DNA of 64,000 nucleotides from an uncultured bacterium (GCA_943788175.1 CALSPG010000007.1:346258-410257); one strand, 5' to 3'; positions 21,092 through 41,729 are shown, counted from the stretch's first letter. Notes: generated from the letters alone by a model not told the origin. Translations and numbers: made by a program.

Positions 21092-21790
21092 ATGTTGTGG
21101 AAACTCACGCAAAATGTTTTAACAACCGTTGTAGTTCTTTATACTGGAATTCATTGGGGTATTGCATCCGTTCCCGGTGTTTACATTGTTTTAAATATTT
21201 TTCAAAGCACAGGATTTCATTCAAATTTTGAGCGTTCTTTATATATCGGAATCAGTATTGGGCTTGCATATGTATTATGGATGCTTTCAACAATTCTCTT
21301 AACAGCTTTATTAAGTTATGTTTTCAAGCCTTCAATCGGTTCCATCCGAGTTCCTTTTCTTTCTTTAATAACGATAAGATGGGGTTTCTTAAATGTTCTA
21401 GATCGCCTGGCTAAGCCTTGCATACATCATATGGTTCCATCATGGATTACAGACTTTTATTATAGGGCTCTCGGGTGCAAAATTGGTAAGGGTGCTTTTG
21501 TAAGCAGTGATCGGATAAATGATCCTTACTTAGTTTCAATTGGCGAAAATGCAATTATAGGCTCAAAAGTAATTATTACTCCCCATTTAGCAGAAAGAGA
21601 TGATTTAGTATTTTCGCCAATTGAAATTGGTAATAATTGTTTAATTGGTTTAGGTGCGCAAATTAATCCAGGCTGTATCATTGGTGATGGCTCTGTTATA
21701 GCATCTAGGGCAATAGTTCCAAAATATACAAAAGTCCCTCCCGGAGAAGTCTGGGGTGGAATTCCAGCAAGATTTATTAAAAAGAAATAA
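21092..21790 (+). CDS. membrane-anchored hexapeptide-repeat (left-handed beta-helix) acyltransferase
   Basis: Two N-terminal TM segments; LGCKIGKGA, IGENAIIG, IGNNCLIG, VWGGIPARFIK. Confidence 0.8.
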   Translation: MLWKLTQNVLTTVVVLYTGIHWGIASVPGVYIVLNIFQSTGFHSNFERSLYIGISIGLAYVLWMLSTILLTALLSYVFKPSIGSIRVPFLSLITIRWGFLNVLDRLAKPCIHHMVPSWITDFYYRALGCKIGKGAFVSSDRINDPYLVSIGENAIIGSKVIITPHLAERDDLVFSPIEIGNNCLIGLGAQINPGCIIGDGSVIASRAIVPKYTKVPPGEVWGGIPARFIKKK

Positions 21791-21817: not shown

Positions 21818-24034
21818 ATGAATCAATTTAACAGAGCTGAAATCATAGATAATAATTTTTTAGAATCTTTGAAAAGCAATTCTTTTCCAAAAAATGAACA
21901 GTTTACCGCGTTAAGTGATCTGAGCATAAATACCAATGAGATAGTATCTATTTTTGAAAGTCAAGTTTTAAGTAGGCATATAGATATAAAAGCGAGGGAA
22001 TTAAAAGATAAAGGACAATGTTTTTATACTATTGGAAGTTCTGGACATGAATCTAATGCCGTATTTGGTAATGTATTTCCATTTTCAGATATTGCTTTTT
22101 TACACTATCGAAGTGGTCCTTTTTTTATTGAGCGTTCAAAACAGCTTTTTGGTAGCACGCCGCTTTATGATATGGCACTATCATTCATGGCCTCCTCAGA
22201 AGACCCAATCAGTGGTGGTAGACATAAAGTGCTTGGAAGTAAACCATTAAATATTCCGCCTCAAACAAGCACAATTGCTAGTCATATTCCAAAGGCAGTT
22301 GGCGCTGCCTTTTCTATAGATAGAGCTAAAGATCTAAAAATCAAAGAAAAAGAATTAGAATCAAATAGTATAGTTATTTGTAGTTTTGGAGACGCGAGTG
22401 CAAATCATGCAAGTGCACTAACAGGCTTTAATACATCAAGGTGGGTAAGAAGTATAGGTGGAAATGTGCCTATAATTTTTATTTGTGAAGATAATGGTGT
22501 AGGTATTTCTGTTCCAACACCAAAAGATTGGATAAAAAATACTTATTCAAAACAAGAGCATTTGAAATATTTTAGCTGTAATGGGTTAAATATTCTTGAT
22601 ACAATAAGAGTATCAAAAATGGCTGAGGAATATTGCCGTTCAAATCGGGCACCAGTTTTCTTACACATGAAAACTGTAAGGTTAATGGGTCACGCCGGGT
22701 CTGATATTGAATCAAGTTATTTAGAAATAGATCATATTGAGGATGCTGAAAGAAGAGATCCATTACTTTACTCCGCTTCAGCTTTATTAGAAAATAATAT
22801 ATTGTCCTTGGAAGAAATATTCAATTTATATGAGCATGCTAGAAAAAAAGTGGATTATGTTTTTGATAAAGCAGCAACAAAACCAAGACTTTCAAAAGCA
22901 ACAGATGTAATGAAGTCCATTGTTCCTTCAAATATTAGAAAAAACCATCCCTATTCACCTCTAGAAAAAAAGAGAGCTGAAATTTTTGGTAAAGAATATA
23001 AAAGATTGTCTAGGCCTGCGCATATGGCTAAGCTAATAAACTACGCTCTTTCTGATATAATGCTACAGTACAAAAATGGTTTGATTTTTGGTGAAGATGT
23101 AGCTAAAAAAGGAGGTGTCTATCATGTTACCTCCGGTTTATATGAGCAGTTTTCAATAAGGAGAGTTTTTAATAGCCCTCTAGACGAGACATCTATTATT
23201 GGATTTGCTGCAGGATTAGCTCACAATGGATTTTTACCAATACCAGAGATACAATTTTTAGCTTATTTTCATAATGCTGAAGACCAATTAAGAGGAGAAG
23301 CCGCAACACTTTCTTTTTTTAGTCAATCTCAATATACAAACCCAATGGTAATACGTATCGCAGGTTTAGCTTATCAGAAAGGTTTTGGTGGTCATTTTCA
23401 TAATGATAACTCCTTAGCAATTTTTCGAGATATACCAGGAGTGATTGTAGCCTGTCCTTCAAATGGTGCAGATGCGGTCAAGATGTTAAGGGCTGCAGTC
23501 GAGCATGCTTACAAAAATGGAAGAATAGTAGTATTTATTGAACCTATTGCTCTATACATGACTAAGGACCTTCATGAATCTAAAGATAATAAATGGTGTT
23601 TTAATTATCCAGAATTAGGCGAAATTCTTGAAATTGGAAAATTTATTCATTATGGTGATGGTGATGCTTTAACTATTATTAGTTACGGCAATGGTCTTTA
23701 TCATTCATTAAAAGCGCAACCTGTAATTGAAAAAAAAATAAAGCAGAAAATTAAAATTATTGATTTGTGCTGGCTTTCTGATATTAATGTTGAACAGTTA
23801 ATAACCGAAATTGGATCATCCAATAAAATTTTAATTGTAGATGAGTGTCGGCGTTCAGGATCTTATGGAGAAGGTTTAATGTCTTCATTATATTCAAAAA
23901 TGAAAAACAGATATGATATAAATCTTCATGCGGCTGAGGATAGTTTTATTCCGCTTGGTGATGCAGCAACTTCTACTTTGCCAAACAGTAAGACAATAAC
24001 ATTTGAAGCATTGAAATTGTACGAAAATGCGTAA
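21818..24034 (+). CDS. fused alpha/beta E1 component of a 2-oxoacid dehydrogenase (ThDP-dependent)
   Basis: GSSGHE, LHYRSG, ThDP motif FGDASANH...EDN, LMGHAGSD; beta domain FGEDVAKKGGVY, PLDETSIIG, EIQFLAY, GGHFH. Confidence 0.9.
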   Translation: MNQFNRAEIIDNNFLESLKSNSFPKNEQFTALSDLSINTNEIVSIFESQVLSRHIDIKARELKDKGQCFYTIGSSGHESNAVFGNVFPFSDIAFLHYRSGPFFIERSKQLFGSTPLYDMALSFMASSEDPISGGRHKVLGSKPLNIPPQTSTIASHIPKAVGAAFSIDRAKDLKIKEKELESNSIVICSFGDASANHASALTGFNTSRWVRSIGGNVPIIFICEDNGVGISVPTPKDWIKNTYSKQEHLKYFSCNGLNILDTIRVSKMAEEYCRSNRAPVFLHMKTVRLMGHAGSDIESSYLEIDHIEDAERRDPLLYSASALLENNILSLEEIFNLYEHARKKVDYVFDKAATKPRLSKATDVMKSIVPSNIRKNHPYSPLEKKRAEIFGKEYKRLSRPAHMAKLINYALSDIMLQYKNGLIFGEDVAKKGGVYHVTSGLYEQFSIRRVFNSPLDETSIIGFAAGLAHNGFLPIPEIQFLAYFHNAEDQLRGEAATLSFFSQSQYTNPMVIRIAGLAYQKGFGGHFHNDNSLAIFRDIPGVIVACPSNGADAVKMLRAAVEHAYKNGRIVVFIEPIALYMTKDLHESKDNKWCFNYPELGEILEIGKFIHYGDGDALTIISYGNGLYHSLKAQPVIEKKIKQKIKIIDLCWLSDINVEQLITEIGSSNKILIVDECRRSGSYGEGLMSSLYSKMKNRYDINLHAAEDSFIPLGDAATSTLPNSKTITFEALKLYENA

Positions 24035-25040
24035 AAAAAGAATAGTCGTTGTTTGTCCCGGCCGAGGTTCTTATACCCGCGAAACTTCAAATTATTTAGA
24101 AAATGTTGATTCAAACCTTCGGGCAATGATTGAAGAGCAAGATAAAATAAGATCTGCAAAAAAATTCAAAAGTATTTTTGAGCTTGATAAAAATAGTTTC
24201 AGAGCAAAGACACATATGACTGGAGAAAATGCCTCTCCTTTGATTTATTCTTGTTCTTTAAAAGACTACGCCTCAATCAATAAAGAGGAGTTTGAAGTCG
24301 CGGCGATATGTGGTAATTCTATGGGTTGGTATATTGCGATGGCTTTGAGTGGAGCCTTAACAAGTAAAAGTGGCTTTGAGCTCATTCAGGCCATGGGTGT
24401 TTTAACTCAAGAACATGGTGAGGGTGGACAGATTATTTATCCAATTATTGATGAAGACTGGCGAATGAATATTGATCGAAAAAACATGCTATTAGATGAA
24501 GTTGCCAAAATTGGAGCCCATTTATCTATAAAGCTAGGTGGCTTTATTGTAATTGGAGGTAAACAGAGTTCCCTAGATCACCTATTAAAAACATTACCTG
24601 CCATTGATAAATATCCTTTTCAGATTCCTTTTCATGCTGCTTTTCATACTCATCACCTTGAAGAGTCGTCTACACTCGCACAATCTCATTTTGATTATAA
24701 AAATTTTAATAAGCCAAAAATCCCTTTGATAGATGGTCGAGGTAATATATGGTCTCCTTGGTCCACAGATACGCAAGCATTATTTAGTTATACGTTCGCT
24801 CATCAAATTGTAAAGCCCTATGATTTTTCTTCTTCTATAGAGGTTGCAGTAAAAGAATTTTGCCCCGACCATATTGTCCTTCTTGGGCCTGGAAATTCAC
24901 TTGGAAGTCCCGTTGCGCAGGTTTTGATAGATCATAATTGGAATGGCTTAACTTCAAAAAGCGACTTTTTAAAATCTCAAGAAAAAGACCCTTTCGTTAT
25001 TTCGATGGGGATTGAAGAGCAAAGAAACATAGTTTTATAA
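24027..25040 (+). CDS. FabD-like (ACP S-malonyltransferase family) acyltransferase, atypical
   Basis: CPGRGSY, nucleophile elbow GNSMG, HAAFHT, LGPG. Overlaps the E1 stop codon. Confidence 0.8.
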   Translation: MRKKRIVVVCPGRGSYTRETSNYLENVDSNLRAMIEEQDKIRSAKKFKSIFELDKNSFRAKTHMTGENASPLIYSCSLKDYASINKEEFEVAAICGNSMGWYIAMALSGALTSKSGFELIQAMGVLTQEHGEGGQIIYPIIDEDWRMNIDRKNMLLDEVAKIGAHLSIKLGGFIVIGGKQSSLDHLLKTLPAIDKYPFQIPFHAAFHTHHLEESSTLAQSHFDYKNFNKPKIPLIDGRGNIWSPWSTDTQALFSYTFAHQIVKPYDFSSSIEVAVKEFCPDHIVLLGPGNSLGSPVAQVLIDHNWNGLTSKSDFLKSQEKDPFVISMGIEEQRNIVL

Positions 25041-25111
25041 TTATTATTATCGAAGTTTACTTTTTTATACTTTATTAGATTAATTTACCTAAACATAACA
25101 AGGGAAATGTA

Positions 25112-26284
25112 ATGAAACTTATTGGTCCAGATTTTTACAACATATCAGATTTATTAACAGAAGAAGAATTATTTATTCAAAAAACAGCAAATGAATTCGT
25201 TACAAAAGAATTCAAGCCACTGATCAATGAGCACTTTGAAAAGGGAACCTTTCCATTAGAAATTGCTACAAAATTAGGTGAACTTGGGTTTATGGGGTCA
25301 GCTTTACCTGAAGAGAGTGGTGGAGCCGGTGTGAGTAATGTAGCATATGGTTTAATTCTTCATGAGCTTGAAAGAGGTGATTCCGGGTTACGTTCATTTG
25401 CCAGTGTTCAAGGTTCATTGGTTATGTACCCTATCCATTCATATGGATCAAATGAACAAAAAAAGAAGTGGTTACCAGGACTCGGGGCAGGTGAATTAAT
25501 TGGTTGTTTTGGACTAACTGAATCGAACTTTGGTTCAAATCCTGGAGGTATGGCTACTTCTGCAAAAAAAGATGGAGATGATTGGATTATTAATGGTTCA
25601 AAAATGTGGATTACGAATGGGAGCTTGGCCGACGTTGCACTTGTTTGGGCAAAGGATGAATCTGGTGTGATTAGAGGATTTCTGCTTGAAAAAGGAATGG
25701 ACGGTTTTACTTCAAACGATATCCATGGGAAATTAAGTTTGAGGGCTTCAGTCACTTCAGAATTATCAATGGTTGATGTAAGAGTGCCAGATAGCTCAAG
25801 GCTTCCGGATATTGAGGGATTGAAAGGACCACTTTCATGTCTTACTCAGGCAAGATATGGTATCGCCTGGGGAATGGTAGGTGCCGCTATTGATTGTTAT
25901 CAAACTGCATTGGATTACTCTTTAGAAAGAAAGCAATTTAGTAAGCCCATCGCAGGTTACCAGTTAACACAAGCCAAATTTGCAGAAATGATTACACAAA
26001 TCACGATGGCTCAATTAACGGTTTATCAGCTTGGGAGATTAAAGGATAGTGGGAAAATGAGATTTGACCAGGTGTCTTTAGCGAAAAGAAACCATTGCCA
26101 AATGGCTAGGGATGTAGCCAGGACATGTCGAGAAATTTTAGGTGGAAATGGAATTATGGAGGATTACTCTCCGATGAGGCATATGACAAATATTGAGACC
26201 GTTTTTACTTATGAAGGAACACATGAAATGCATTCCCTAATATTGGGACAGTCTGTTACAGGACTAGCAGCGTACGATTCTTAA
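25112..26284 (+). CDS. gcdH: glutaryl-CoA dehydrogenase (acyl-CoA dehydrogenase family)
   Basis: ELERGDSGLRSFASVQGSLVMYPI, GCFGLTE, KLSLRASVT, CLTQARYGIAWG, TYEGTHEMH are typical of GCDH. Confidence 0.85.
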   Translation: MKLIGPDFYNISDLLTEEELFIQKTANEFVTKEFKPLINEHFEKGTFPLEIATKLGELGFMGSALPEESGGAGVSNVAYGLILHELERGDSGLRSFASVQGSLVMYPIHSYGSNEQKKKWLPGLGAGELIGCFGLTESNFGSNPGGMATSAKKDGDDWIINGSKMWITNGSLADVALVWAKDESGVIRGFLLEKGMDGFTSNDIHGKLSLRASVTSELSMVDVRVPDSSRLPDIEGLKGPLSCLTQARYGIAWGMVGAAIDCYQTALDYSLERKQFSKPIAGYQLTQAKFAEMITQITMAQLTVYQLGRLKDSGKMRFDQVSLAKRNHCQMARDVARTCREILGGNGIMEDYSPMRHMTNIETVFTYEGTHEMHSLILGQSVTGLAAYDS

Positions 26285-37880: not shown

Positions 37881-38642
37881 ATGAAAATCGCAGTATTAGT
37901 AAAACAAGTTGTAGGCTCAGAGTCCTCCCTAGATATATCTCCAGATAATAAATGGATAGATGAATCTAATGCAACGTTTGTAATGAACCCTCCGGATAGC
38001 TATGCTATTGAGGAAGCAATGAATATTAAAGAGAAAATTGGAGAGGGTGAAGTTGTCATTGTTTCAATGGGCGCTGACAGCGTACAGAAAGTAATTAGAG
38101 AAGCCTTATCAAAGGGTGCCGATAGAGGTATCCATGTTCAAACTGATGGCACCGCTTTTATTGACCCCCTAAATACAGCGAAAAATATTGTGTCAGCCTT
38201 AGATGGAGAAAATTTTGATTTAATATTATCAGGCTTACAGTCTGATGATACAGGTATGGGGCAAACGGGTGTTTTAGTAGGTGAACTATTAAATATGTCA
38301 ACGGCAACGCTTGCCATTGAAACTGATATCGATTCGGAACATATTAGAGTCAAACGAGAGTTAGAATCTGGCTGGTTTCAGTGGGTTAGGCTCGAGTCTC
38401 CTGCTTCGATTAGCATTCAATCAGGCATAAATCAACCGAGATACCCTTCGCTAAAAGGTATTATGGGTGCCAAGAAAAAAGAAATAAAAGTTGTCCCATT
38501 GTCTGTTCATGAAACGAAGCAAGAAGTAGAAAAAATTTCGATTCCTCAAAAGTCTAAAGAAACAGAAATAATTAACACAGACATTGATTCCTCTGTTAAA
38601 AGAATCGTAGAAATTTTAAAGTCTGAAGTGAAAGTATTTTAG
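37881..38642 (+). CDS. etfB: electron transfer flavoprotein beta subunit
   Basis: MKIAVLVKQV, MNPPDSYAIEEA, GADRG, NQPRYPSLKGIMGAKKK. Confidence 0.93.
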   Translation: MKIAVLVKQVVGSESSLDISPDNKWIDESNATFVMNPPDSYAIEEAMNIKEKIGEGEVVIVSMGADSVQKVIREALSKGADRGIHVQTDGTAFIDPLNTAKNIVSALDGENFDLILSGLQSDDTGMGQTGVLVGELLNMSTATLAIETDIDSEHIRVKRELESGWFQWVRLESPASISIQSGINQPRYPSLKGIMGAKKKEIKVVPLSVHETKQEVEKISIPQKSKETEIINTDIDSSVKRIVEILKSEVKVF

Positions 38643-38644
38643 TC

Positions 38645-39589
38645 ATGAAGTCTTTGGTTATTATAGAGCATAAAAATGGTGTTTTACACCGAATGAGTAG
38701 AGAAGCCATTTCCGGTGCTCAGAAAATCGGCGGAGATATCACAGCATTAGTTATTGGAGAAAACGCTGAATCGATTTCTAGTGAGTTGTCTAATTTTAAA
38801 ATTGAAAAAACTATTATAGTTAATCACGAGCTCGTTCCTTATTATAATGTTGACGGATATAAAGAGATTATTAAACAAGTAGTCAATACAATTTCACCGG
38901 ATATTATAATTACGGGTCATACCTATCAGGCCAGAGATTTTATGCCAAGAATTAGTGCAGCACTTGATATACCGTTCATTCCTGATATAGTAGAACTCGA
39001 AGATAGTATTTATATAAAACAGGTTTTAAACTCAAAATTAAATGCATCAATATCTTCATCATCAGATAGGGTGCTTATTAGTTTTCAATCTGCTAGTTTT
39101 AGTGAGGAAGATGTTATCAAAGGTTCTAGTAGTTCTGAATCCTTTGATGTAGACCTTGATTCTTCTTCAATTAAATCCAAGTCAGATGACCCCTTCCAAG
39201 AATCTGCATCAGAAGTTGATTTAGAAAGCGCCGAATTAATTGTTTCTGTTGGACGCGGCATAGAAAAAGAAGAAAACAAATCAATCGCTTTCGAATTGGC
39301 AGAAGTAATTGGAGCAGAAGTATCAGCGAGTAGGCCAGTTGTAGATGCTGGATGGCTTCCTAGTTCTAGACAAGTTGGGAGTTCTGGTAGCACGGTTAGC
39401 CCTAAGCTATATCTCTCGCTCGGTGTTTCAGGTGCAATTCAGCATGTTGTAGGAATGAAAGGCTCTAAAAATATTTTAGCGATTAATAAAGACTCTGATG
39501 CGCCTATTTTTGAGATTGCAGATTATGCTGTTGTTGGAGATCTTTTAGAAATTGTGCCTAAGCTTATTGCCACTCTTAAAGACTCTTAA
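38645..39589 (+). CDS. etfA: electron transfer flavoprotein alpha subunit
   Basis: VSVGRG, ASRPVVDAGW, QVGSSG, GVSGAIQHVVGM, AINKD. Confidence 0.93.
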   Translation: MKSLVIIEHKNGVLHRMSREAISGAQKIGGDITALVIGENAESISSELSNFKIEKTIIVNHELVPYYNVDGYKEIIKQVVNTISPDIIITGHTYQARDFMPRISAALDIPFIPDIVELEDSIYIKQVLNSKLNASISSSSDRVLISFQSASFSEEDVIKGSSSSESFDVDLDSSSIKSKSDDPFQESASEVDLESAELIVSVGRGIEKEENKSIAFELAEVIGAEVSASRPVVDAGWLPSSRQVGSSGSTVSPKLYLSLGVSGAIQHVVGMKGSKNILAINKDSDAPIFEIADYAVVGDLLEIVPKLIATLKDS

Positions 39590-39713: not shown

Positions 39714-41729
39714 TTGCTCTCAAACATTGAAAAAATAATTTTTATCATAATTGCTATCAGTGCATTCGGCGCTTCTTATGTTACCTTTGGTAAAATGTTT
39801 AAAGTCATTAGCGTTGGTTCTCAGCCAATTGATTGGAAAAAAGCACTATGGAATTTTCCAAAAGGCTTGAAAGTATTTATTAGTCAAAACACCCTTTTCA
39901 AGACCAGGCCTATTGTTGGTTTTATTCATGCTCTAGTAGCATGGGGTTTTACGCTTTATTTAATCGTGAATGTCGTTGACGTTTTATACGGCTTCATACC
40001 TGACTTTCATTTTTTTCCAAATTATTTGATTGGCAAGGTTTATCGGCTTTTTGTTGATATCTTTACAGTGTTAGTTCTTGTCGGAGTTCTTTATTTTTTA
40101 ATAAGAAGATTTATTTTAAATGATAGCAGGTTACTAATAAATGAACCAGTAATGCTAAGCGAGGAAGCAAGAATTGGCATGAGAAATGACTCGTTGTTAG
40201 TTGGGTTATTTATTTTTGCGCATGTGGGTGCACGATTTCTATCAGCAAGCTTTGAGATTGCAAAAAATGGAGTTGATTATTTCCAGCCAGCAGCGACAAC
40301 AGTTTCCTTATTATGGTCTAATTTATCTTCAGATAATATTATTCTATTTGAGCATATTAGCTGGTGGGTCGCGCTGGGGTTAATATTGGGATTTTTACCT
40401 TATTTCCCATTCAGCAAGCACGCTCATTTATTTATGGGGCCACTGAATTACATGGTTAAGGAAGAAAGGTCTTCCATGGCAGCTATAGAAACAATTGATT
40501 TTGAAGATGATTCAATTGATCAATTTGGGGCAGGGCAAATCAATCATCTACCGCAATCTAACCTCTTGGATGCCTATGCATGTATACAATGTAGTCGTTG
40601 TCAGGATGCTTGTCCTGCTTATGAAACAGGTAAGGAGTTATCGCCATCGGCACTAGAAATAAATAAGCGCTATTTTTTAAATAACCATTTGGATGAGTTC
40701 ATCGACGGCTCAATACCTGACTCTTCTATTACAAATCATTTGCTAACAGATGAAGCGGCTTGGAGTTGTACTACATGTGGGTATTGCGTTGAGGTATGTC
40801 CAGTTGGAAACGAGCCAATGATTGATATCTTAAGGGCTCGTCAAAATCTCGTCATGATGGAAAGTAAATTTCCTCAAGAAGCAATGGAGACTTTTGATAA
40901 AATAGAAAACTATGGTAACCCATGGGGCCTTAGTCCAAATGAAAGAGAAGTATGGATGGAAGGTCGTGAAGTTCCACTTATGAGAGAAAAAAAGGAAGCT
41001 GAAGTATTATATTGGGCTGGATGTGCAGGTGCATATGATAGTAGAGGCAAAGAAATTTCACAGGCAGTTGTAGACGTGCTCAAAGAAGCCAAAGTCGATT
41101 TTGCATCTTTAGGAAATGAAGAAACATGTACAGGTGATTCAGCTAGGAGGATAGGAAATGAATACTTATTTCAAACCATGGCAGAAAAAAACTTGGAAAC
41201 ATTTGGTAAATATAAATTTAAAAAAATTGTTACCCAATGTCCGCACTGCTTTACAACGTTAAAAAATGATTACGCAGAACTCGGAGCTGATCTTGAAGTT
41301 GTACACCACTCCCAATATATAGGTCAGTTAGTCACTGAAGGAAAGATAAATCCAAAAGCATGGATGGATGAAGATGTTACGTATCATGATGCATGCTATC
41401 TTGGCCGTCACAATGATGAATATGATGCCCCAAGAGACGTGATTCAATCAATCATGAAAGATGGCAAACTCAAAGAAATGGAAAAATCTAGAGAAGAGAG
41501 CTTTTGTTGTGGTGCTGGCGGAGGAAATATGTGGTATGAAATAAAAACTGGTGAAAGAATAAATCATAACCGGTTTAAACAAGCCGCTGAAACTGGAGCA
41601 ACTACAGTTGCAACTGCATGCAACTTTTGTAACATAATGATGGAAGATGGAATGAAAGTAACGGGGAACGATGAAAATATGAAAGTAATGGATATTGCAG
41701 AACTTGTATCAAAAAGTTTAGCGAGGTAG
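39714..41729 (+). CDS. membrane-bound Fe-S oxidoreductase (FadF/HdrD-like; candidate ETF:quinone oxidoreductase)
   Basis: N-terminal TM domain with FSKHAH, two CxxCxxCxxxCP ferredoxin motifs, CCG domains (TQCPHC, YHDACYLGR, CCGAGGG); lies next to etfBA. Confidence 0.85.
   Translation: MLSNIEKIIFIIIAISAFGASYVTFGKMFKVISVGSQPIDWKKALWNFPKGLKVFISQNTLFKTRPIVGFIHALVAWGFTLYLIVNVVDVLYGFIPDFHFFPNYLIGKVYRLFVDIFTVLVLVGVLYFLIRRFILNDSRLLINEPVMLSEEARIGMRNDSLLVGLFIFAHVGARFLSASFEIAKNGVDYFQPAATTVSLLWSNLSSDNIILFEHISWWVALGLILGFLPYFPFSKHAHLFMGPLNYMVKEERSSMAAIETIDFEDDSIDQFGAGQINHLPQSNLLDAYACIQCSRCQDACPAYETGKELSPSALEINKRYFLNNHLDEFIDGSIPDSSITNHLLTDEAAWSCTTCGYCVEVCPVGNEPMIDILRARQNLVMMESKFPQEAMETFDKIENYGNPWGLSPNEREVWMEGREVPLMREKKEAEVLYWAGCAGAYDSRGKEISQAVVDVLKEAKVDFASLGNEETCTGDSARRIGNEYLFQTMAEKNLETFGKYKFKKIVTQCPHCFTTLKNDYAELGADLEVVHHSQYIGQLVTEGKINPKAWMDEDVTYHDACYLGRHNDEYDAPRDVIQSIMKDGKLKEMEKSREESFCCGAGGGNMWYEIKTGERINHNRFKQAAETGATTVATACNFCNIMMEDGMKVTGNDENMKVMDIAELVSKSLAR

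Follow-up and report, generated by a model that had tools for sequence, protein, structure and literature searches.

A fused 2-oxoacid dehydrogenase E1 coupled to a FabD-fold acyltransferase: a candidate bacterial module for the conversion of 2-oxoadipate to glutaryl-CoA

Genes and proteins at the locus

The window analysed here is a 64,000-nucleotide stretch of DNA from an uncultured bacterium (GCA_943788175.1 CALSPG010000007.1:346258-410257). It forms the 3' end of contig C7 (C7:346258-410257) in a genome of 2.27 Mb that is 92% complete and that resembles Marinimicrobia, judging by the name on one 62%-identical homologue. The window holds two overlapping genes, one for a fused 2-oxoacid dehydrogenase component (E1) and one for a FabD-fold serine acyltransferase (AT), followed by a gene for glutaryl-CoA dehydrogenase (gcdH). 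These three same-strand open reading frames (ORFs) had been proposed in an earlier reading of the window's sequence alone (the original prediction), and all three were recovered, at the following coordinates:

21818-24034, + strand: E1, fused alpha/beta thiamin diphosphate (ThDP)-dependent 2-oxoacid dehydrogenase component, 738 aa, with PF00676, PF02779 and PF02780; proposed to be specific for 2-oxoadipate
24027-25040, + strand: AT, FabD-fold Ser/His acyltransferase without the malonyl-binding Arg, 337 aa, assigned by fold and residues; proposed to transfer glutaryl to CoA
25112-26284, + strand: GcdH, glutaryl-CoA dehydrogenase, 390 aa, with GCDH-type similarity and three acyl-CoA dehydrogenase (ACAD) Pfam domains

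The ATG of AT overlaps the E1 stop by 8 nt, and a 71-nt spacer separates AT from gcdH. Profile searches of the window found no E2 catalytic domain, no lipoyl domain and no PF00698 (FabD) match; E3, acyl carrier protein (ACP) and ketosynthase were not separately searched for. A scan for promoters and terminators returned fewer matches than were found in shuffled sequence.

E1 carries the domain set of the heterotetrameric (alpha/beta) type of 2-oxoacid dehydrogenase, with Pfam scores of 101 bits for PF00676, 81 bits for PF02779 and 34 bits for a partial PF02780 match (cut-off 25.9). It is similar to alpha/beta-type chains only, not to the SucA/DHTKD1 type, and is only 27% identical to the canonical fused E1 of the same genome. 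The Pfam scan of E1 gave no match to the lipoyl domain (PF00364) or to PF00198, and no flavin, Fe-S or other redox cofactor domain was found in E1 or AT by family scans. The ThDP/Mg motif GDA...EDN aligns with GDG...ENN of human PDH E1alpha, His292 aligns with the YHGHS His region of the same human protein, and His528 aligns with position 128 of the Geobacillus stearothermophilus E1beta chain 1w85_B. Both histidines are invariant in 21/21 E1 orthologues. The two active-site histidines of canonical alpha/beta E1s serve the reductive acylation of the lipoyl group, and E1 keeps both, as His292 and His528. The C-terminal domain of canonical E1beta chains is the E2-docking domain. In E1 this domain (PF02780, Transketolase_C) is divergent, with a partial match of 34 bits versus 99 bits in the genome's canonical fused E1, which fits a changed partner.

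AT matched no Pfam family at E<=0.001, hence none of PF00698, PF00198 or PF00364, and its TIGR00128 (fabD) score of 46.6 bits against a cut-off of 260.9 places it outside FabD by profile. Its AlphaFold2 model (pLDDT 97.4) was compared with the Protein Data Bank by Foldseek. The top matches were all malonyl-CoA:ACP transacylases (MCATs), with TM scores of 0.75/0.86 at 14-19% identity; the match to 4rr5 had E=1e-18 and TM 0.75/0.86. In the model, the two-subdomain MCAT/FabD fold with its Ser-His dyad is unmistakable. The original prediction had read this dyad as kept (Ser in GNSMG, His in AFH), and both residues, Ser98 (GNSMG) and His207 (AFHT), are invariant in 43/43 members of the AT family, as is W145. 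AT has the motif PGRGSY where FabD has GQGSQ, with Arg13 present in at least 90% of the 43 sequences. The HMMER alignment sets 'liqaMgvltqe' of AT against 'lvkkRgkfmqe' of MCAT 3ptw and puts Met123 at the position of the Arg, in agreement with the earlier alignment by eye; Met123 is invariant in 21/21 E1-linked AT orthologues. We take the residue that binds the malonyl carboxylate to be Arg117 of E. coli FabD (LVxxRG), and the Gln of GQGSQ to be likewise a mark of FabD.

A separate bona fide FabD is encoded at C6:52962 in the same genome. With Met in place of Arg and a true FabD elsewhere, AT is judged by its sequence not to be malonyl-specific. The earlier description of a non-malonyl acyltransferase is thereby upheld, by the TIGR00128 score far below cut-off as well as by the invariant Met123. 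Public names for the family include 'ACP S-malonyltransferase', 'acyl transferase domain-containing protein' and even 'acyl carrier protein'. The whole family lacks the malonyl-binding Arg, which contradicts the first of these names, and the common family name is probably wrong; if so, the analysis corrects a widespread 'ACP S-malonyltransferase' annotation.

The third gene encodes a GCDH-type enzyme by sequence similarity. It scores 462 bits against the putative GCDH of Thermus thermophilus (2eba), 392 bits against human GCDH (1siq), and 392-462 bits against ten distinct GCDH-type chains, one of which, 4w9u, is deposited simply as 'acyl-CoA dehydrogenase'. Other ACAD and ACOX types score <=254 bits. 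The protein also carries a TYEGT motif.

Coupling and distribution of the E1-AT pair

Genomic neighborhood analysis establishes that E1 and AT travel together. In the AT-seeded set, an E1 orthologue lies immediately upstream of AT in 16/16 genome loci. By their labels these belong to Marinimicrobia-like metagenome-assembled genomes (MAGs), to Shewanella, Motiliproteus and Rhodobacteraceae, and in one case to a MAG assigned to Streptomyces; Shewanella waksmanii and Motiliproteus sp. MSK22-1 are among the carriers of the module. Class- and phylum-wide searches added further loci with the same order in 12/12 cases (28/28 in total). An E1-seeded metagenome set comprised 80 loci, 71 of them evaluable for AT. 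AT was found near E1 in 66 of the 71, directly downstream in 65 and about 1.6 kb farther downstream in one (L086); this corresponds to 24/24 Marinimicrobia-like loci and 42/47 others. With start codons chosen heuristically, 14/20 loci, and the window as well, show an overlap of 4 or 8 nt between the stop of E1 and the start of AT. E1 and AT form one conserved, tight unit. The arrangement recurs across phyla, far beyond chance, and the gene order originally described is real.

In one lineage the two proteins are joined. The protein cluster P0272 (1128 aa; 5 member sequences, 2 contigs) is an in-frame E1::AT fusion in which about 35 residues link a complete E1 to a complete AT, and P0241, a fragment of 595 aa, has the same junction. 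The Arg-rich N-terminus of P0272 looks like a mitochondrial presequence, and both clusters may come from a eukaryote. P0272 has no precomputed lipoyl-domain (Pfam) match, and an ESM Atlas search with it returned no usable match. Its AlphaFold2 model, built from a mixed alignment, reached pLDDT 77.9 and pTM 0.58, values at which the domain packing is not confidently placed. A three-chain complex prediction (E1 49-370, E1 402-738 and AT) scored 0.88, against 0.85 for a control with chain 2 swapped.

The tail of P0241, rich in Pro, Ser and Leu, resembles non-coding sequence translated by read-through. Two other clusters were rejected as fusions. In P0271 (1082 aa), no similarity to E1 is left beyond residue 573, and the sequence from there to AT is rich in Arg, Pro and Gly, as is usual when GC-rich DNA is read out of frame; this looks like a frameshifted read-through. 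P0198 (391 aa) has a chimeric look, with mid-E1 joined to mid-AT.

The AT family is small and patchy. Of 1.84 billion cluster representatives, 113 match at E<=1e-30, and AT-positive genomes numbered 2/400 in a sample of the class of the Shewanella locus and 5/401 in a sample of the class of the Rhodobacteraceae loci. In the window's phylum 40/301 genomes were positive, all in four families of one order. A sister genus has the order thyX, hexapeptide-repeat acyltransferase gene, gcdH and, farther on, birA, with nothing between the second and third genes; E1-AT is missing. Relative to that genus, E1-AT behaves as a clean two-gene indel.

Pathway context

The original prediction had assigned the module to lysine catabolism, as the step from 2-oxoadipate to glutaryl-CoA, the substrate of GcdH. 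Its proposed check, a neighborhood survey of the pair with gcdH and lysine genes, supports this assignment. A gcdH gene lies within the flanks at 8/16 genome loci and 9/12 further loci (17/28) and at 34/80 metagenome loci. It occurs in three arrangements: downstream, upstream on the same strand, and divergent.

The most complete context is that of L037, a gammaproteobacterial locus that came from searching the class with the Shewanella locus as seed. Its genes run head to tail on one strand: a class-I aminotransferase, gcdH, E1, AT, AmaB and an AmaA-like L-pipecolate oxidase, the last at 386 bits, below its cut-off of 600. By these family assignments, the string covers the route from pipecolate to crotonyl-CoA step after step, and E1-AT occupies the place of the conversion of 2-oxoadipate to glutaryl-CoA. 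At L040 the adjacent AmaB (L-piperidine-6-carboxylate dehydrogenase) scores 759 bits against a cut-off of 730, and the AmaB of L037 is 66% identical to it. In the metagenome set, amaB adjoins the module in five loci and an aminotransferase in three. A gene of the HglS family (2-oxoadipate dioxygenase/decarboxylase) lies directly downstream of AT in Motiliproteus (L008). The available part of one report predicts that members of this family with an HHE triad and an Arg use 2-oxoadipate (PMC7286885). The window's own genome contains an adjacent pair of lat (L-lysine 6-transaminase, 639 bits versus a cut-off of 521) and amaB (774 bits versus 730), which indicates that it makes 2-aminoadipate from lysine.

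A further gene is inserted in one Marinimicrobia family. There, a homocitrate-synthase-like gene stands between AT and gcdH (L044:10856-12079 and L047:8812-9939), and the same insertion occurs in metagenome loci L062, L063, L064, L066 and L075. The protein is short, has PF00682 and PF22617, and scores 413.2 bits for TIGR02146 against a cut-off of 413.55. The enzyme may make 2-oxoadipate from 2-oxoglutarate and so feed the module. The alternative of a role in lysine biosynthesis by the aminoadipate route was considered and is unlikely: LysA, of the diaminopimelate (DAP) route, exceeds its cut-off in the window's genome, and no LysX does. A 48%-identical copy is also encoded in the window's genome at C3:6830-7948 (L049:6830-7948), next to an amino-acid carrier gene.

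A conventional E1 for the same step was also sought. In the window's genome the best match to the SucA/DHTKD1-type E1 profile (TIGR00239) scored 22 bits (cut-off 770) and fell on the canonical fused E1. No match over cut-off was found in any of ten genomes of the phylum (0/10: G000, G972, G1048, G868, G991, G852, G1045, G1014, G916 and G817), where the weak matches fell on canonical fused E1 only. A SucA-type E1 as the alternative where the pair is absent was rejected, the profile being below cut-off in 5/5 genomes with the pair and 5/5 without it. In the phylum sample, GcdH occurs in 38/40 AT-positive genomes versus 183/301 overall, and AmaB in 37/40 pair carriers versus 214/301 overall, as read from the table.

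Because the gene contexts of several unrelated lineages converge on 2-oxoadipate and glutaryl-CoA, it is likely that the module performs the conversion of one to the other. The lat-amaB pair of the window's own genome agrees with the substrate and pathway first suggested.

Proposed mechanism, alternatives and relation to known systems

The genome encodes three E2s, each beside its own E1, plus GcvH:

C7:29369-34691: AceE-type E1/E2/E3 operon, the putative E3 being an E3-sized gene
C5:319694-323850: canonical fused E1 and its E2, flanked by LipB-like and radical-SAM (LipA-like) genes
C5:327071-330189 (L050:13072-16190): a third, divergent set of E1alpha (250 aa), E1beta (360 aa) and E2-like protein (399 aa)

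In the E2-like protein of the third set, the lipoyl domain matches only weakly (20.6 bits) and the catalytic domain is incomplete (84 bits). The original term "E2-less" is accurate for the locus, and the recurring-neighbour survey found no E2 at the module among the 28 AT-seeded loci; it does not hold for the cell, given the three E2s and GcvH elsewhere in the genome.

The preferred reading places the module at the end of the 2-aminoadipate branch, where E1 and AT would convert 2-oxoadipate to glutaryl-CoA and GcdH would convert this to crotonyl-CoA and CO2, with the electrons passing to the electron transfer flavoprotein (ETF). The fused E1 dimer would decarboxylate 2-oxoadipate on ThDP and reductively glutarylate a lipoyl-lysine arm borrowed from the lipoyl domain of a resident E2 or from GcvH. 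AT would then take the S-glutaryl-dihydrolipoyl arm, form glutaryl-O-Ser98 with His207 as the base, and hand the glutaryl group to CoA, and would so stand in for the E2 catalytic core through a covalent ping-pong mechanism. A resident E3 would re-oxidise the arm.

The FabD-fold relatives of AT act on thioesters borne by small carriers with a swinging arm. The ThDP site of E1s and the Ser of FabD-type enzymes are both buried, at cleft bottoms in their families, and a swinging arm is therefore the simplest connector between them. E1 keeps the His pair and no redox domain was found, which makes a direct hand-off from ThDP to CoA less likely. Of the two transfer routes originally offered, the lipoyl carrier is thus the favoured one, and the direct route from the ThDP adduct loses ground to the two retained lipoyl-acylation histidines. 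Likewise, in the earlier proposal that AT replaces E2, the tight E1-AT unit, fused in one lineage, stands, while the replacement of the E2 core itself we still only infer. A precedent for AT is ABHD11, which the accessible part of one report describes as a Ser enzyme acting on glutaryl-lipoyl (PMC12643935). AT may be the CoA-transferring component, at a chance a little under even. Travel of the acyl group on a borrowed lipoyl arm is possible, if somewhat doubtful. The mechanism as a whole, in which E1 would load the borrowed arm and AT would transfer through Ser98 to CoA, is put forward tentatively, as a proposal that falls just short of being an even bet.

Several observations weigh against this reading and bear on its alternatives. 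GcdH (183/301) and AmaB (214/301) are far commoner in the phylum than the pair (40/301), so that most relatives must make glutaryl-CoA otherwise and the co-occurrence is not specific. No lysine-related neighbour was found at seven Rhodobacteraceae loci, nor at L038 and L039, and 33/52 metagenome loci that are not Marinimicrobia-like lack every lysine, 2-oxoadipate or glutaryl marker searched. In the six Rhodobacteraceae loci with enough sequence, out of seven, a BCAT-like class IV aminotransferase stands directly upstream of E1. Such contexts favour a different substrate or end product (a branched-chain or other 2-oxoacid, 2-oxoglutarate, 2-oxopimelate, or the loading of an ACP with glutaryl or another primer for lipid or biotin synthesis), with gcdH as one context among several. 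FabD relatives normally serve ACP, and a BirA gene lies near the module in the window, both of which speak for this alternative; however, no ACP or ketosynthase recurs near the pair, the BirA/thyX synteny is present without E1-AT in the sister genus, and glutaryl-ACP is said, in the part of a report that was available, never to have been observed in nature (PMC7645780). The gcdH, amaB, amaA, HglS and homocitrate-synthase-like contexts, by contrast, converge independently on 2-oxoadipate or glutaryl-CoA. Overall, a different substrate or end product appears quite improbable.

Other points concern the partner and the carrier. AT is missing from the flanks in 5/71 E1 loci (L088, L105, L118, L125 and L129), where no substitute transferase was recognised, so that AT may be non-essential or may be encoded at another site. 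Among the 28 AT-seeded loci neither a lipoyl carrier nor an E3 is a recurring neighbour of the pair, each of the three resident E2s already has an E1 of its own, and the conserved His pair serves decarboxylation too, so that lipoyl use is not proven by it. The main competitor to the preferred reading, itself rated unlikely, takes E1 as an extra, 2-oxoadipate-specific E1 working on the resident E2 and E3, in the way that human DHTKD1 uses DLST and DLD, with E2 making glutaryl-CoA. AT would then be an accessory: either a glutaryl-lipoyl thioesterase or editor that frees stalled arms in the manner of ABHD11, or a transacylase between glutaryl-CoA and a carrier with a side role. This account draws on the three E2s with lipoyl domains and the E3-sized gene in the AceE operon, on the His pair kept in E1, on the five AT-free loci, on FabD-fold acyl hydrolases such as PksD among the fold matches, and on ABHD11 as far as its partly available description goes (PMC12643935). 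It fits poorly with a coupling, overlap and fusion that are tighter than expected of a housekeeping editor, and with the divergent C-terminal domain of E1 (34 versus 99 bits), canonically the one that docks E2. A hydrolase, moreover, would yield glutarate rather than the substrate of GcdH, and a glutarate CoA-transferase is not among the recurring neighbours. A lipoyl-independent, self-contained enzyme is very improbable. Here glutaryl-ThDP would form on E1, another oxidant would take the electrons, and transfer would be direct, with AT docked, or by way of CoA entering E1. No lipoyl carrier is encoded with the pair at any examined locus, and even the fused polypeptide has no precomputed lipoyl-domain match, as such an enzyme would predict; but E1 and AT both lack a redox domain, whether flavin, Fe-S or other, that could take two electrons, the retained His pair points to lipoyl acylation, and direct transfer between two cleft bottoms would be sterically hard.

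Some of the loci just named have further features. The E1s of the five AT-free loci are orthologues at 47-52% identity; in L105 gcdH directly follows E1, in L118 a LysR regulator and a class-I aminotransferase lie upstream of it, and in L088 two small ORFs without a family match follow it. In the Rhodobacteraceae loci L012-L015, L018 and L019 the BCAT-like gene lies 9 nt upstream of E1 (e.g. L013:4876-5799), and no gcdH is nearby.

Comparison with known systems places the preferred reading between several of them. Mitochondrial DHTKD1 with DLST and DLD is reported to catalyse the reaction proposed here, from 2-oxoadipate to glutaryl-CoA, at the same point of lysine catabolism, ahead of GCDH, and DHTKD1 is likewise a dedicated E1 without its own E2 gene that borrows parts of another complex. 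DHTKD1 is, however, a SucA-type homodimer without a dedicated acyltransferase partner, whereas the E1 of the module is a fused alpha/beta protein of the BCKDH/PDH type, coupled or fused to a FabD-fold enzyme. The genome's own canonical fused E1 (C5:319694-323850) has the same domain order in one polypeptide; it differs in its full-strength Transketolase_C and in being accompanied by an E2 of its own, which carries lipoyl, E3-binding and catalytic domains.

AT shares its fold and Ser-His dyad with FabD/MCAT and with trans-acting polyketide synthase (PKS) acyltransferases and acyl hydrolases, and presumably also FabD's chemistry, an acyl-O-Ser intermediate between two thioesters. It departs from FabD in its low identity (14-19%), in the replacement of Arg117 by Met, of GHSxG by GNSMG and of GQGSQ by GRGSY with a near-invariant Arg13, and in its partner, which is E1 rather than an ACP, ketosynthase or PKS. 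The proposed function of AT, the transfer of an acyl group from dihydrolipoyl to CoA, is that of the E2 core (PF00198, CAT-like fold), from which it differs in an unrelated fold and mechanism, in lacking a lipoyl or E1/E3-binding domain, and presumably in forming no 24/60-mer core. Human ABHD11, in what is available of its description, is also a Ser-nucleophile enzyme and acts on S-glutaryl-lipoyl adducts of a 2-oxoacid dehydrogenase (PMC12643935); unlike AT, it is an alpha/beta-hydrolase, releases glutarate from the adduct by hydrolysis and shows no genetic coupling to an E1.

Literature searches found no paper on an E1 coupled to a FabD-like enzyme and none on a bacterial alpha/beta-type 2-oxoadipate E1; supplements, which the searches did not cover, might hold gene lists. 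To our knowledge, the E2 that partners E1 has the CAT fold in every 2-oxoacid dehydrogenase system described so far. Obligate coupling of an E1 to a FabD-fold transferase, in some cases as a fusion, would be an architecture new to this central class of enzymes. At present the bacterial step from 2-oxoadipate to glutaryl-CoA either has no enzyme assigned or is attributed to generic complexes, and the present reading, if true, names the missing bacterial gene or genes for it in the 2-aminoadipate/pipecolate branch of lysine catabolism. In Agrobacterium tumefaciens, 2-oxoadipate is a biotin precursor, and the available part of the report names no enzyme for the step (PMC7645780).

The assignment also bears on carbon flow in the abundant, protein-degrading Marinimicrobia of the deep ocean, where SucA-type 2-oxoglutarate dehydrogenase was absent in 10/10 genomes. 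In those Marinimicrobia with the homocitrate-synthase-like insert, a bypass may run from 2-oxoglutarate through homocitrate, 2-oxoadipate and glutaryl-CoA to crotonyl-CoA; 2-oxoglutarate would then be oxidised to acetyl-CoA without a 2-oxoglutarate dehydrogenase step. Taken jointly, the FabD-fold Ser transferase would be a second, non-homologous solution to the E2 catalytic step, and E1::AT a minimal 2-oxoadipate dehydrogenase that uses any available lipoyl arm, fused in another, possibly eukaryotic, lineage and serving a 2-oxoglutarate bypass in some Marinimicrobia. This combined picture is rather unlikely to hold in every part.

Three further features of the window were considered alongside the module:

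21092-21790, + strand: hexapeptide-repeat acyltransferase with a hydrophobic N-terminal half; best NCBIfam match the terminal domain of Pls/PosA-type non-ribosomal peptide synthetases (NRPS), 77 bits, far below cut-off
37881-39589, + strand: EtfB and EtfA (PF01012, PF00766)
39714-41729, + strand: 4Fe-4S/CCG-domain protein, 671 aa, adjoining etfBA (PF02754 CCG x2 and Fer4)

The hexapeptide transferase was rejected as a member of the module: together with thyX it stays in place in the sister genus that lacks E1-AT, and it was not found beside the module outside the phylum. EtfAB and an Fe-S protein had originally been named as a possible drain for the GcdH electrons, and Pfam confirms their identity, the Fe-S partner having two CCG domains and Fer4. 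The etfBA genes lie 11.6 kb from the module. EtfAB is the likely electron acceptor of GcdH, as an acceptor generic to all acyl-CoA dehydrogenases, and from its domains the 4Fe-4S/CCG protein is a possible link from ETF to quinone for GcdH and the other acyl-CoA dehydrogenases.

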